From sequence record NC_047806.1: DNA of 44,018 nt; one strand, 5' to 3'. Below, one piece after another: positions 1 through 42,671 of the stretch; the first letter of the stretch is position 1, and each line of letters opens with the position of its first letter. This DNA is from Escherichia phage vB_EcoP_B. The position numbers and the translations under genes are program-made. The notes under the pieces were generated by a model, which had not been told where the DNA came from, did no database searches, and saw only the letters and a list, made by a program, of their open reading frames with translations.

Positions 1-1128
1 TAACGCATCTCGCTGGATTTCTACAGCAGTAACACGTTCGGCATCACGGCGTGTCATCGTCTCCATCATGAATACGACACCGATACGGCGAGTGTACACC
101 TCTAGAACCGCACTAATAGGTGTGAGGTCTGCATACTTACCTAACTGTACAATATGGATGTCTTCTTCTACACCAGTAACAACCTCACCAGTGCCAGAGT
201 TAACAAAGTGGTCAACATCAGTCTGAGCACCCGGACGAATCAAGTACTTAATATCTGCCATCAGTGCAGCACCACGGGCAACTGCTTCAGACAGGAATTG
301 GATAACGAATAAATCACCGGAGTAATCCTCTGCTAAAGGACGACCCCAATCCTCACCATAGCTTCGCTTCCAAGTTAGCGGGATAAATGGTAGCTTTTCT
401 GATTTGATTTTACTTACCTTACCAACAGGGATATCATCAGCAGATTGCTTGAGTTCCCAAAAACCCTCACCAAGATACTTAGCATGTGTGTACAGCTTAA
501 TGCTGTCATCTTCCTTGCATTTCTTACCTTTCAAGCCCACCTCTACCACAGCACGGGTAGCGGGGTCAAATGTACGCAAGGACTTTTCTTGCAGTAAGAT
601 AATGTCTAACAGGTCGCCATTGGTATCACGGTTAACTACGTAGTGATGCATTGGTATTGCACTGATTGCACCTTTGCTCGGCTTGTATAGCATACAGCTG
701 CCAGCAACAATAAGATGCTTGAATGCTTCTACTACAGCAGGCCGGAATTGACGTTGCTCTAACTCTTTCATTGCCCGTGTTTCCACTTGAGCAAAGATAG
801 TAGCTAGCTCTGTCTTCTTCAGGCCACGCTGATTAAGAATCTTCTCACCTTGTGCAGTTAGGTCTACACGGAAGAAGGAGCGCTGTGCAGGGAATAGCAC
901 TTGCGCTAGCTTGTTGGCTAGGTGGTTAGTTGCCTGAGCACCTACACCTTGCCATCCGTTCTGCGAAGTCTCGTTATCACCTTTGTCATTCATCAGATAG
1001 GGCAAGGTTAATTTGGAGTAATGCTTCGCCCTATCAAGGAAAGAGCTACGTTTAGTGGAGAACTTCTCCCATAGCTTAGGTATCTTAGACCGCTTACCTC
1101 CATACTCCAAATCTGTGCTCTGTTTCAT
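1..1128 (-). CDS. portal (head-tail connector) protein, N-terminal 376 codons; partial, continues at the window end
   Basis: ATG at 1126-1128 with AAGGTG SD; frame open to position 1 (absent from ORF track because no stop in window); translation MKQSTDLEYGGKRSKIPKLWEK...ERVTAVEIQRDAL resembles T7 gp8 (from memory). Confidence 0.75.
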   Translation of the reverse strand, partial: MKQSTDLEYGGKRSKIPKLWEKFSTKRSSFLDRAKHYSKLTLPYLMNDKGDNETSQNGWQGVGAQATNHLANKLAQVLFPAQRSFFRVDLTAQGEKILNQRGLKKTELATIFAQVETRAMKELEQRQFRPAVVEAFKHLIVAGSCMLYKPSKGAISAIPMHHYVVNRDTNGDLLDIILLQEKSLRTFDPATRAVVEVGLKGKKCKEDDSIKLYTHAKYLGEGFWELKQSADDIPVGKVSKIKSEKLPFIPLTWKRSYGEDWGRPLAEDYSGDLFVIQFLSEAVARGAALMADIKYLIRPGAQTDVDHFVNSGTGEVVTGVEEDIHIVQLGKYADLTPISAVLEVYTRRIGVVFMMETMTRRDAERVTAVEIQRDAL

Positions 1129-1129
1129 A

Positions 1130-1339
1130 TTACACCTTCAAGCTAGAAGCTACCGGACGGACAAGCCCGCGCTTACCTTTTGCAGATGCAGTCGCATCAT
1201 CACCACCTGCACCAATCTGTATATCTTCAGCTTCAGTCTCAGGCTTACGCTCAAGCTGCTGAGCAGGAACCTTGGCTTCAATACGCGGTGCATCTTGAGC
1301 AAGACCGACAGCCTTAAATGCTTTCTTTACAATACCCAT
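1130..1339 (-). CDS. small hypothetical protein (69 aa), possibly gp6.7-like virion protein
   Basis: ORF track; ATG with strong SD CTAAGGAG; sits immediately upstream of portal; composition resembles T7 gp6.7 (weak). Confidence 0.5.
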   Translation of the reverse strand: MGIVKKAFKAVGLAQDAPRIEAKVPAQQLERKPETEAEDIQIGAGGDDATASAKGKRGLVRPVASSLKV

Positions 1340-1348
1340 GTGATCTCC

Positions 1349-1810
1349 TTAGAACTTCAGGTTATACACAGTGCCAAACTGTTCAAAGCCAAGTCGCTTA
1401 TACATACGTCCGACACGTTCTTCATTAATACCAGAAGCGATAGACAGGCGAACCTCGGAACACCCACTATCGTTAGCCCATTGCTTCAAGGCTTTGATGA
1501 GGCGCATACCGAGCAGTGTCCCTCGCTTCTCTGGTACAATATAAAAGAGAATGTCAGATGCAACTCTTACAGGTGTCCAAGGGGCTAACTCGTGATAGCC
1601 AGCCCACAGAAAACCTACAATCTGCCCTTCATCTACAGCAACCCATAGGAATAAATCTTCTCTACTAAGAGATGCACAAAGGTTATGTGCGCTTTGTTCT
1701 GCATTCCATGAGGCTGAGTGGTGGGCTACAATCTTGACTTCTTCTTCCACATATTTATTCCCAAGGTTTATAATCTCAGGAATATCTAGGAATGAAGCTG
1801 GACGTATCAT
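1349..1810 (-). CDS. GNAT-family N-acetyltransferase (153 aa)
   Basis: ORF track; GNAT-like pattern (WVAVDEGQIVGF ... VPEKRGTLLGMRLIKAL ... YKRLGFE); ATG 1808-1810. Confidence 0.6.
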   Translation of the reverse strand: MIRPASFLDIPEIINLGNKYVEEEVKIVAHHSASWNAEQSAHNLCASLSREDLFLWVAVDEGQIVGFLWAGYHELAPWTPVRVASDILFYIVPEKRGTLLGMRLIKALKQWANDSGCSEVRLSIASGINEERVGRMYKRLGFEQFGTVYNLKF

Positions 1811-1989
1811 TGGACCACCAGTTGTGCTCTAACACAATCCATAATGTAACGCTTCACTTCATCTACGATTAATTCTTCGTGAGTCTTAGTCACCTTCGGA
1901 GAAGAAGGCTTGAGAATCATCTCAAGCATCTCCATACCCTCAAATGAAATCGTCGGTTTCTTCTTCGTCTGTACCATAGAGTTCTTCAA
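1807..1989 (-). CDS. hypothetical protein (about 56-60 aa)
   Basis: ORF track; listed start is TTG, first ATG at 1975-1977 with weak SD; stop overlaps GNAT start. Confidence 0.3.
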   Translation of the reverse strand: MKNSMVQTKKKPTISFEGMEMLEMILKPSSPKVTKTHEELIVDEVKRYIMDCVRAQLVVQ

Positions 1990-2155
1990 CCTTCTCTTGG
2001 ATAGCTTCTACAGAAAGACCAAGCTCTTCTGCATCAGCTAGTAAGGTATATGGCACTTCCATGCCACAGGATAAAGTTTCAAAGATAGCTTCTGCTACCT
2101 CAACTGCACGAGTTGCCTTCATGCTATCAAAAGAAATCTGGTTCATCTTTGTCAT
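1940..2155 (-). CDS. hypothetical acidic protein (71 aa)
   Basis: ORF track; ATG 2153-2155; acidic C-terminus EEETDDFI. Confidence 0.4.
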   Translation of the reverse strand: MTKMNQISFDSMKATRAVEVAEAIFETLSCGMEVPYTLLADAEELGLSVEAIQEKVEELYGTDEEETDDFI

Positions 2156-3074
2156 GTCTTAATTCTCCAGCTTTGGGCAGACGAATGTTGCCCTTGCTTG
2201 AATCCTGAAGACCTTTTACTTCAAAGATTTTACCAATGACATTCAATCGTCCACCGTGTTTAATATCGTGGAACATCTGTTCTGCATCTGCATGAGTCCA
2301 CCCTTTACCTAACATAGCTTTGATTGTCTTGCCTCCTTTCCATTTGAAAATGAGGTTAGCTACCTTACCTTTGTACTTACCTTTGCCTTCTTCAAAGCCA
2401 ATACAAGTAAGGTCATAAGTTACCTTACGGACTTCTTTAGTCTGACGATAACCTTTGTGGCCTGCTTCATAATCACAGTCCAGTTTAAACACAGCACCCT
2501 CTCGGCCTGCGTCTATTTGCTCTTGCGCAAACGCTTCAACTTCTCGCTCATTATGGCAAGGAGTAATAGGAAGGATAGCGTTGTACCCGCTAAGATGAGC
2601 GCCGATGCGACGATGTAAAGCATCGTAACGTTTGAGATAAGAAACATCAGTGAATCCATCATGGAATGCCTTAATAGTTAACATATCGAAGAAGTCAATA
2701 TACAGGTTGTCTTTAATCTGCTGGCCTATGAAATCAAGTGGCTCTGTGCGATTAGGGTTAACTACTCCAGAAAGTGCTTCAAGGTAGACATCAACAGCCA
2801 TAGATTGCAACTCACCGAGATAAATGCCAGTAGGGAAAGCTGAATAAGATTCTTCCAAGGTTTCCGTGTTAGCCAGTTTCTTTCCAGTGCGTCCAAAGAC
2901 ACCAACGACACCATCGTTGCGAACAACCACAGCACTAAATATCCCATCTCGTTTTACCTGTGCATAACATGGAAAAGTTAATTTCTTCTCAGGTACTTCA
3001 CCGCGATGTTTCACCAGCATGAATGGGTGATTGCGGTGGTCTTCTGGAAGACCTAGGAATTGGAAGATATTCAT
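2127..3074 (-). CDS. ATP-dependent DNA ligase (315 aa)
   Basis: ORF track; nucleotidyltransferase motif I KRDG; strong SD GAAGGAGGTG; size/content like T7-group ligase. Confidence 0.75.
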   Translation of the reverse strand: MNIFQFLGLPEDHRNHPFMLVKHRGEVPEKKLTFPCYAQVKRDGIFSAVVVRNDGVVGVFGRTGKKLANTETLEESYSAFPTGIYLGELQSMAVDVYLEALSGVVNPNRTEPLDFIGQQIKDNLYIDFFDMLTIKAFHDGFTDVSYLKRYDALHRRIGAHLSGYNAILPITPCHNEREVEAFAQEQIDAGREGAVFKLDCDYEAGHKGYRQTKEVRKVTYDLTCIGFEEGKGKYKGKVANLIFKWKGGKTIKAMLGKGWTHADAEQMFHDIKHGGRLNVIGKIFEVKGLQDSSKGNIRLPKAGELRHDKDEPDFF

Positions 3075-3769: not shown

Positions 3770-3790
3770 GTTCTATAGTGTCAACTAAAT
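3770..3790 (-). promoter_or_regulatory. phage RNAP promoter (SP6-type)
   Basis: minus-strand ATTTAGTTGACACTATAGAAC; upstream of 3246..3716. Confidence 0.65.
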
Positions 3791-4846: not shown

Positions 4847-5221
4847 TTATAGCTTAGCTAGTCGTAACCTCTCACCTTTCTTATTAGCAACATATGTTGC
4901 CCTGATAGCACGTACAACATCCCAAGTTAGTTTAGCACGATTATTATTTTCTCCTGCAAAGCTAGCACGTCTGCCTCGATCTATCATATCTTGTATGTTG
5001 TCCTGCTGTGTACCAGATATTAAGTGTGCAGGGTTTATACACCTTGCATTATCACAAGTGTGTCTAATCACTACATCCTTTATATCCTCTATAGAAAGGC
5101 CGTGGTGCTCTGCATAGACCACGCGATGAAGTAATTGTAACCTCTTACTAGGTTTATGCCACGACCTGTAGTAACCTAATTGATTTAAGCATTTATAATG
5201 CCCGTGGTCTATACAGTCCAT
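4847..5221 (-). CDS. HNH endonuclease (124 aa), possible homing endonuclease
   Basis: ORF track 4847..5353 trimmed to ATG 5219-5221 with AAAGGAG SD one nt after upstream stop; HNH core HHGLSIEDIKDVVIRHTCDNARCINPAHL. Confidence 0.65.
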   Translation of the reverse strand: MDCIDHGHYKCLNQLGYYRSWHKPSKRLQLLHRVVYAEHHGLSIEDIKDVVIRHTCDNARCINPAHLISGTQQDNIQDMIDRGRRASFAGENNNRAKLTWDVVRAIRATYVANKKGERLRLAKL

Positions 5222-5222
5222 A

Positions 5223-5624
5223 TCATACTCCTTTCTTTCTTGCATAAGCAAGGCGTGCCTTACGGTTCTTAGCCTCGCGCTTCTCTGCCTCCGTTTGATG
5301 TTTGTGATATAACTTATCTGTCTGAGGCGTACTATGTAACTTCCAGTATTCATACAGTCGTTCTAACCATTGAAGCTGGAAGTAACGGTTATTACCTGCC
5401 TTGCCATAACCAGAGATAACACCCTTAATCTTCCCTTCCGCACCATTGCAGCCTCGGCATACAACAGCGCGGCAGAATCCTGTCTCATGGTCATGGTCAA
5501 GTACACGGTTTACAGGTGTGACAGCTTTGAGACTGCCGCCACACAGAGGGCATTTCCAGCCTTGCTTATCCAGCAATTCCTTCTTATAAGCTGCCACCTC
5601 CGATGCTTTTAATTTGCTAACCAT
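5223..5624 (-). CDS. endonuclease VII-like Holliday-junction resolvase (133 aa)
   Basis: ORF track; CPLCGG ... DHDHETGFCRAVVCRGCNGAEG resembles T4 endo VII zinc/HNH region. Confidence 0.65.
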   Translation of the reverse strand: MVSKLKASEVAAYKKELLDKQGWKCPLCGGSLKAVTPVNRVLDHDHETGFCRAVVCRGCNGAEGKIKGVISGYGKAGNNRYFQLQWLERLYEYWKLHSTPQTDKLYHKHQTEAEKREAKNRKARLAYARKKGV

Positions 5625-42650: not shown

Positions 42651-42671
42651 CTTCTATAGTGTCCAGTAAAT
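42651..42671 (-). promoter_or_regulatory. phage RNAP promoter (capsid promoter)
   Basis: ATTTACTGGACACTATAGAAG between scaffold and capsid genes. Confidence 0.75.

Follow-up and report, generated by a model that had tools for sequence, protein, structure and literature searches.

The window analysed here, i.e. the whole stretch of 44,018 nucleotides in sequence record NC_047806.1, belongs to Escherichia phage vB_EcoP_B, a Vectrevirus of the K1E/K1-5 lineage within the SP6 group (Autographiviridae, Molineuxvirinae); this agrees with the placement in the SP6 group made in a preliminary description of the locus. Over its first 6 kb, the window shares 99.9% identity with Escherichia phage vB_EcoP_C. 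Near the start of the window, a gene for a GNAT N-acetyltransferase lies on the minus strand between DNA ligase and portal. The features of this region are, in ascending coordinates:

1..1128, minus strand: portal (head-tail adaptor) gene, 5' part only, as the gene runs off the start of the window; assigned from the RefSeq annotation of vB_EcoP_C
1130..1339, minus strand: gene 28, a basic protein of 69 aa (pI 9.5) and relative of T7 gp7.3 (PHROG 9033, E 1.1e-12; PHROG 1320, E 3.9e-11)
1349..1810, minus strand: GNAT N-acetyltransferase gene (153 aa, 17.4 kDa, pI 6.1), based on ORF, Pfam, PHROG, RefSeq annotation, AlphaFold2 model and dN/dS
1499..1546, minus strand: GNAT motif A region, FYIVPEKRGTLLGMRL, codons 89-104, which run from the last part of strand b4 through the loop into helix a3; acetyl-CoA pyrophosphate loop
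1807..1977, minus strand: small ORF, equivalent of gene 26 (PHROG 6507), whose stop overlaps the GNAT start (ATGA)
1940..2155, minus strand: small acidic ORF, equivalent of gene 25 (PHROG 5860, pI 4.05)
2127..3074, minus strand: ATP-dependent DNA ligase, the last gene before the GNAT gene with a recognisable role in DNA metabolism
3770..3790, minus strand: match to the SP6-type phage promoter, ATTTAGTTGACACTATAGAAC, the nearest one upstream of the GNAT gene; 0 chance matches are expected for this long pattern

The interval 1349..1810 corresponds to exactly one ORF on the minus strand, with an ATG start, 153 amino acids and the stop codon included, and a Shine-Dalgarno-like motif (GGTGG) precedes the start codon. 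Membership in the GNAT superfamily (Pfam clan Acetyltrans) was defined by a score above the curated gathering cut-off, and the protein exceeds it for three models: PF00583 (41.1 bits, E 2.4e-10; cut-off 20.7), PF13508 (39 bits, E 1.1e-9; cut-off 27) and PF13673 (26.2 bits; cut-off 23.6). It also matches PHROG 1249, annotated as 'acetyltransferase', with an E-value of 4.9e-54, as well as PHROGs 3810 and 6472. The dN/dS ratios of the gene against its orthologs in VEc3, CrRp3 and SP6 range from 0.06 to 0.16; this strong purifying selection indicates a functional gene rather than a fortuitous ORF. The GNAT identification proposed in the preliminary description is thus confirmed by three Pfam models, PHROG 1249 and a model of the full GNAT fold (see below), and the profile search that it had recommended finds PF00583 significant, so that the objection of a missing GNAT hit falls away.

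The gene is not new, being already annotated as an acetyltransferase in relatives. Its equivalents are HOR58_gp33 of vB_EcoP_C and gene 27 of K1E, both of which carry the RefSeq label 'acetyltransferase', and gp27 of SP6, after which we call the product gp27 where convenient. These are the same gene (PHROG 1249) with identical neighbours, labelled by similarity only. In Era103, gp33 is described as "similar to gp27 of phage SP6", and in an alternative SP6 numbering the protein is gp28 and labelled "unknown". The literature that we searched mentions the SP6/K1E gp27 family in annotation tables only, and we found no experimental work on it.

Along the direction of transcription, the promoter (3790..3770) is followed by a nucleotide kinase gene, a 63-aa ORF, the DNA ligase gene, the two small ORFs, the GNAT gene, the gene of the 69-aa basic protein and the portal gene. 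The GNAT gene is thereby the third-to-last ORF before the portal gene and lies downstream of DNA ligase, i.e. at the end of the replication module, where it had originally been placed. Between this promoter and the portal gene, we found neither a further promoter match nor a convincing terminator; the GNAT gene is therefore predicted to be co-transcribed with the kinase and ligase genes, gene 28 and the portal gene, that is, with the last DNA-metabolism and the first virion genes. In the direction of transcription, the promoter pattern is next matched exactly at 42663..42651, probably just upstream of the major capsid gene, as estimated from how long the portal and scaffold genes are. The ATGA overlap of the gene 26 equivalent with the GNAT gene suggests translational coupling. 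On the other side, gene 28 starts 9 nt after the GNAT stop codon. PHROG 1320 is the family of T7 gp7.3, a tail-channel or tail-assembly protein, and the gene 28-type protein is a short relative of it that is paired with the GNAT in every locus examined. In T7, the lysine-rich gp7.3 occupies the junction of adaptor and nozzle and touches the end of the DNA in the tail channel (PMC11784390).

Some further observations concern the surroundings of these genes. A terminator-like hairpin with a stem of 8 bp is situated at 1908..1927 (minus strand) inside the small ORF upstream of the GNAT gene. It was rejected as a terminator and is probably due to chance, given its poor T-run (CTTCTTCTCC) and a scan that returned 9 such sites where 4.9 are expected. 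The area 4847..5353 (minus strand) contains an ORF for an HNH endonuclease. The first 6 kb of the window are covered completely (100%) by vB_EcoP_C, D, R and K, and to 85-86%, in three pieces, by most other Vectrevirus genomes; this pattern would fit the insertion of a homing endonuclease specific to the vB_EcoP_C/D/R/K sub-lineage. A small early or middle gene of vB_EcoP_C, HOR58_gp47 (L001:11837-12002, corresponding to vB_EcoP_B from about 8837 onward), is labelled 'polysaccharide chain length determinant protein' in RefSeq, an odd label for a capsule-targeting K1 phage. The label 'putative acetyl-CoA acetyltransferase' is given in relatives to a protein of 95 aa, 'gp42' of K1E and UAB_Phi78, which is encoded between the terminase and endolysin genes (PMC4837284).

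The AlphaFold2 model of the GNAT, built on 20 homologs, reaches a mean pLDDT of 89.1 and a pTM of 0.85. Its topology, b1-a1-a2-b2-b3-b4-a3-b5-a4-b6-b7, is the full canonical GNAT order, helix a4 included. A Foldseek search against the PDB returned 663 matches at E<=1e-3, and the 50 matches listed are all GNAT enzymes. In an alignment with SSAT2 (2bei), the segment FYIVPEKRGTLLGMRL falls on the motif A region. Compared with the reference motif A, Q/R-x-x-G-x-G/A after strand b4, the protein possesses the variant R96-G97-T-L-L-G101 (R96-G97-x-x-x-G101), in which the arginine and the last glycine are kept and the central glycine is replaced by leucine. R96 and G97 are invariant in alignment A1, and they are conserved in 98% and 88%, respectively, of 64 family sequences. 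Binding by the motif A loop relies on backbone amides, so that the variant may well be functional. The region of the b4 bulge reads VASD..FY, Glu119 in b5 is invariant among close relatives, and motif B in a4 has the form SGINEER...(Y/F)..LGF, which includes Tyr/Phe137 (...Y.RLGF). Such features in b5 and a4 are typical of active GNATs. The protein thus appears to possess the sequence features that an active GNAT needs, from which we infer enzymatic activity.

What is more difficult is the assignment to a subfamily. NCBIfam yields 21 weak matches, all far under their cut-offs, and none of its models comes near enough for an assignment, which we therefore rejected. The models of aminoglycoside AAC(6') enzymes are not reached (AAC_6p_group_E is best with 29.8 bits against 140; the others score 13-21 against 225-325), so that the aminoglycosides proposed as possible substrates in the preliminary description are not borne out. 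The same applies to RimI, the ribosomal protein S18 alanine acetyltransferase (TIGR01575, 25.4 bits against 86.4), to the phosphinothricin/arsinothricin (ArsN1) models (30.3 against 170 and 26.6 against 210), and to MshD and the other characterised subfamilies, whose curated cut-offs the protein misses throughout. By sequence, the best PDB match is 4j3g (E 4.4e-6), a chain deposited as ribosomal-protein-alanine acetyltransferase; further matches include diamine acetyltransferase 2 (E 2.4e-5), PA4866, phosphinothricin-type enzymes, SSAT1 and the polyamine acetyltransferase DpA. By fold, the Foldseek matches listed are led by PAT, Bar and ArsN and also contain Naa60 and 4j3g. These PDB neighbours, with TM-scores of about 0.75-0.79 and identities of 15-24%, are a mixture of small-molecule enzymes and protein N-acetyltransferases. 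Hence, the small cellular GNATs (PAT/Bar/ArsN1, SSAT/thialysine acetyltransferase, RimI, AAC(6')) have the fold and the layout of motifs A and B in common with the phage protein, but differ from it by the low identity of 15-24% and by curated scores far under the cut-offs. Two other routes to a function were followed and rejected. Longer relatives are merely tandem GNAT-GNAT proteins, so domain fusions are not informative. Among the PADLOC defence models, the sole match is PDC-M11A at chance level (11 bits, E 0.034), and the neighbours of the gene, which were checked for a defence or toxin partner, are phage core genes; membership in a defence or anti-defence system was rejected since PADLOC returned nothing meaningful.

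A tblastn search with the GNAT recovered 248 phage records. The protein identity is 99.3% to vB_EcoP_C and mutPK1A2 and 95-99% within Vectrevirus; it decreases to 74.5% in SP6, 66-73% in Klebsiella phages, 62% in Proteus phages, 44% in PP1, 39% in Era103, about 38% in Vibrio phages, 34-36% in Pseudomonas syringae phages (Colwellvirinae) and 28% in the roseophage SIO1. For the gene order, we used a query of 1.9 kb that comprises the portal start, gene 28, the GNAT gene, the two small ORFs and the ligase end. All SP6-like records that cover at least 80% of this ligase-to-portal query (134 out of 134) match it as one place and in the same order; a few carry small insertions, and no variant lacking the GNAT gene was seen among them. 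Thus, ligase, small ORFs, GNAT, small gp7.3-like protein and portal follow each other in every SP6-like genome sampled, and the same order is present in Era103, Njord and ECBP5. The gene is a core gene of SP6-like phages and not an accessory one; the comparison of presence and absence across the SP6 group, which had been suggested at the outset, bears this out.

At a larger scale, a profile search among 1.84 billion cluster representatives gave 1234 clusters at E<=1e-10, and relaxing the threshold to E<=1e-3 raised this number to only 5927; the family is large, yet discrete. Of ten cluster representatives that were looked up, several come from contigs with lengths of 31 to 90 kb and most others from short fragments, while the tandem-GNAT relative P0109 is found on megabase contigs. 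A pattern scan of 185,579 bacterial genomes, which reaches close relatives only, detected no close relative. The family member of SIO1 (Zobellviridae; L006:2974-3435) occupies a different place: it is encoded between a tail-appendage gene and gp26.1/gp26, inside the structural module and not beside the portal gene.

The position of the gene can be followed beyond the SP6 group. At the slot upstream of the small virion protein and the portal, every Autographiviridae lineage sampled (SP6/K1E, Era103, Colwellvirinae, ECBP5, phiKMV, gh-1, LIMEzero and T7) encodes a GNAT-fold protein, the fold being predicted in the case of T7. In the phiKMV and gh-1 phages the slot is occupied by Rac, its only studied occupant. 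Rac is gp28 of LUZ19, a GNAT whose gene is flanked on one side by the phage RNA polymerase region and on the other by the gene of a small virion protein, which is followed by the portal gene. The order GNAT, small virion protein, portal is common to LUZ19, LIMEzero, KNP, Henninger, phiB1_1, Axy23 and MR8, whose GNATs belong to the Rac family (PHROG 3986). KNP and Henninger are true T7-like Ghunaviruses with a Rac-family protein in the slot; in KNP, a gp6.5-like gene and one small ORF precede the GNAT gene, a gp7.3-like gene and the portal gene follow it, and the GNAT is thus exactly at the place of T7 gene 7. In phiPsa17, the authors named the GNAT of the slot "gp7", and their listed virion proteins include gp6.7 and gp7.3, but not the slot occupant (PMC4517105); its absence from this list fits an intracellular enzyme. 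Rac raises lysine acetylation in vivo and causes host proteases to cut the C-terminal domain off the alpha subunit of RNA polymerase, whereas its homolog in LKA1 leaves alpha intact, so that the phenotype is genus-specific (PMC7552054).

Rac resembles the GNAT of vB_EcoP_B in its GNAT fold, its length of about 150 aa and its position after the last middle gene, overlapping or abutting the gene of a small virion protein and followed by the portal gene. According to the alignment, the Rac family ends with b5-hairpin-b6 and appears to differ from the vB_EcoP_B protein in having neither helix a4 nor its motif B, SGINEER...Y.RLGF. The sequence relationship is less clear. We aligned the family of the vB_EcoP_B GNAT (64 members) with a 7-member Rac alignment, built from phage records because a word-index search with Rac gave one cluster only, and hhalign reported a probability of 96% and an E-value of 3e-9 over 122 columns. 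BLASTP finds no similarity between the two proteins (E 4.7), and PHROG 3986 is not matched by the vB_EcoP_B GNAT. As a control, the Rac profile was compared with PDB sequences and with the vB_EcoP_B GNAT family at the same database size. Its best PDB matches are thialysine and diamine acetyltransferases, with E-values from 3e-6 to 3e-4; the best member of the vB_EcoP_B GNAT family reaches 5e-6, and the vB_EcoP_B protein itself 23 bits and 6e-4. Since cellular thialysine/SSAT enzymes are matched at least as well, orthology with Rac on the grounds of sequence was rejected, and the link to Rac is one of position and superfamily, not of demonstrated orthology. Common descent of the slot occupants is possible.

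In T7, the slot holds gene 7 (L010:2131-2532, 133 aa), which is labelled 'host range' and lies between 6.7 and 7.3, upstream of the portal gene in the class III region. Its product has no Pfam match. Based on an AlphaFold2 model with a pLDDT of 90.6 and the order b1-a1-a2-b2-b3-b4-a3-b5-b6, T7 gp7 is predicted to adopt a GNAT fold without helix a4. The top 50 PDB matches of this model are all GNATs, among which SpeG recurs. In BFVD, the structures closest to it are 'host specificity protein A' of CR8 and ICP3, K1F gp6.8, a GNAT of Lidtsur and, from the Rac family, the proteins of Axy23 and PPpW-4; these viral neighbours occupy the equivalent slot of other Autographiviridae. The T7 gp7 family corresponds to PHROG 2746, which includes 'host specificity protein A' of CR8 and ICP3; ORF36 of LIMEzero matches this PHROG with an E-value of 4.8e-6 and links T7 gp7 to the Rac family. 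The statement of the preliminary description that T7 has no such gene is therefore right at the level of sequence, where Pfam finds nothing, but not by predicted fold and position, for which gene 7 is the counterpart.

With the vB_EcoP_B GNAT, T7 gp7 has the genomic slot and the predicted fold in common; it differs in having no Pfam GNAT match, no helix a4 and a degenerate motif A (PEADSKGL), because of which it may have no catalytic activity. We rejected a direct profile link between the two, for which hhalign gave probabilities of 1.8% and 1.0%. Its links from the T7 gp7 family to the vB_EcoP_B GNAT family and to the Rac family are both insignificant, and PHROG 2746 is not matched by the vB_EcoP_B GNAT; the ties of T7 gp7 are those through LIMEzero ORF36, fold and position. 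In the literature searched for a phenotype of T7 gene 7, we found annotation tables only, and the mentions of 'gp7' in PhageMaP refer to other genes. A far-reaching hypothesis, which we regard as possible though doubtful, is that the gene-7 slot always holds a descendant of one ancestral GNAT, whose lines of descent, no longer recognisable as related by sequence, number three families or more (SP6/K1E gp27, Rac, T7 gp7). A single conserved acetylation, either of the host RNA polymerase or protease machinery or of ejected virion proteins, would then be near-universal in T7-type infections, and the T7 'host range' gene 7 would encode either an acetyltransferase or a derivative that has lost catalysis.

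As the best explanation for the gene in vB_EcoP_B, we tentatively propose, with somewhat less than even confidence, that gp27 is an acetyl-CoA-dependent acetyltransferase with a protein target and acts as a host-reprogramming factor like Rac at the switch from middle to late infection. We infer the enzymatic activity, the protein substrate and the role in host takeover from the fold, the motifs, the timing and the analogy of position. If catalytically competent, gp27 would transfer the acetyl group of acetyl-CoA to an amine of a target that is conserved across many Gram-negative hosts. It would be read from the phage-promoter transcript that is common to ligase and portal, and because of this shared transcript it would appear when DNA metabolism gives way to particle assembly in the course of infection. 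The target would most likely be a protein lysine or N-terminus, and the most likely consequence would be the reprogramming of a host machine at the switch, as by Rac; cleavage of alpha is not assumed. Several observations count against this proposal. The protein has no pairwise similarity to Rac, whose profile matches cellular enzymes as well as or better than the gp27 family and whose phenotype is genus-specific; the best PDB matches comprise small-molecule GNATs as often as protein acetyltransferases; and the central glycine of motif A is changed to leucine. The gene had initially been regarded as a candidate for host takeover or anti-defence. Host takeover is plausible by analogy with Rac, an analogy of position and not of specific sequence relatedness, while the fixed presence as a core gene argues against a strain-variable anti-defence function.

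An anti-defence or resistance factor, i.e. a protein that acetylates either a host immune protein, like AcrVA5, or aminoglycosides, seems very unlikely to us. A precedent exists in AcrVA5, a GNAT of mobile elements that inactivates Cas12a (cited in PMC7552054), and some records label relatives of gp27 as 'aminoglycoside acetyltransferase'. But the gene keeps a fixed core position in phages of very different hosts, unlike the variable anti-defence genes of early regions, a distribution that also argues against an AcrVA5-type protein, and the PADLOC match at E 0.034 is at chance level. Resistance is disfavoured by the AAC(6') models, which score 13-30 bits against cut-offs of 140-325, and would be of no obvious use to a lytic phage. 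An acetyltransferase for small molecules such as polyamines, diamines or an amino-acid analogue, which would alter the pool of polycations or metabolites at the time of DNA packaging, has more in its favour, although we still consider it improbable. A ubiquitous substrate of this kind would explain the conservation of the gene in phages of Enterobacterales, Vibrio, Pseudomonas, Rhizobium and Roseobacter. In addition, the matches in the PDB include diamine acetyltransferase 2, PA4866, phosphinothricin-type enzymes, SSAT1 and DpA by sequence and are led by PAT, Bar and ArsN by fold; the profile of the Rac family matches thialysine and SSAT enzymes best, and the T7 gp7 model repeatedly finds SpeG. 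These scores are, however, all at the generic level of the superfamily (30 bits in NCBIfam against 170-210 for ArsN1 and 140 for AAC(6')), TM-scores of about 0.78 are equally common to Naa60 and 4j3g, and Rac raised the acetylation of protein lysines in vivo.

The third alternative keeps a protein as substrate and moves it into the particle: gp27 would be a virion-maturation enzyme that modifies a phage structural protein during assembly. Candidates are the lysine-rich gp7.3-like neighbour, the gp6.7-like core protein and the ejected internal proteins. Without the modification, particles would infect some hosts less well, and this would agree with the label 'host range' given to T7 gene 7, a gene with a predicted GNAT fold in the same slot. 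The tight linkage of the GNAT gene to the gp7.3-like and portal genes in all sampled subfamilies is in line with such a role, as are the location of the SIO1 family member among genes for tail and internal proteins and the nature of T7 gp7.3, a lysine-rich protein in contact with the DNA end in the tail channel (PMC11784390). Yet no acetylated virion protein has been reported, and the term 'acetyl' is absent from PMC11784390; moreover, T7 gp7 may be no enzyme in view of its degenerate motif A (PEADSKGL), and its profile link to the gp27 family is insignificant (hhalign 1.8%). We judge virion maturation to be unlikely and prefer a Rac-like factor directed at the host.

In summary, the identification of the gene is correct but ordinary. 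The GNAT gene itself adds nothing new; the value of the finding lies in the context of its slot across the sampled Autographiviridae, and this GNAT-fold slot, with T7 gene 7 included, is a modestly interesting lead. K1E, K1-5 and SP6 are easily manipulated genetically and are candidates for phage therapy. Gene 27 could thus reveal effects of phage-directed acetylation in E. coli and Salmonella, and work on it could clarify the 'host range' label of T7 gene 7.
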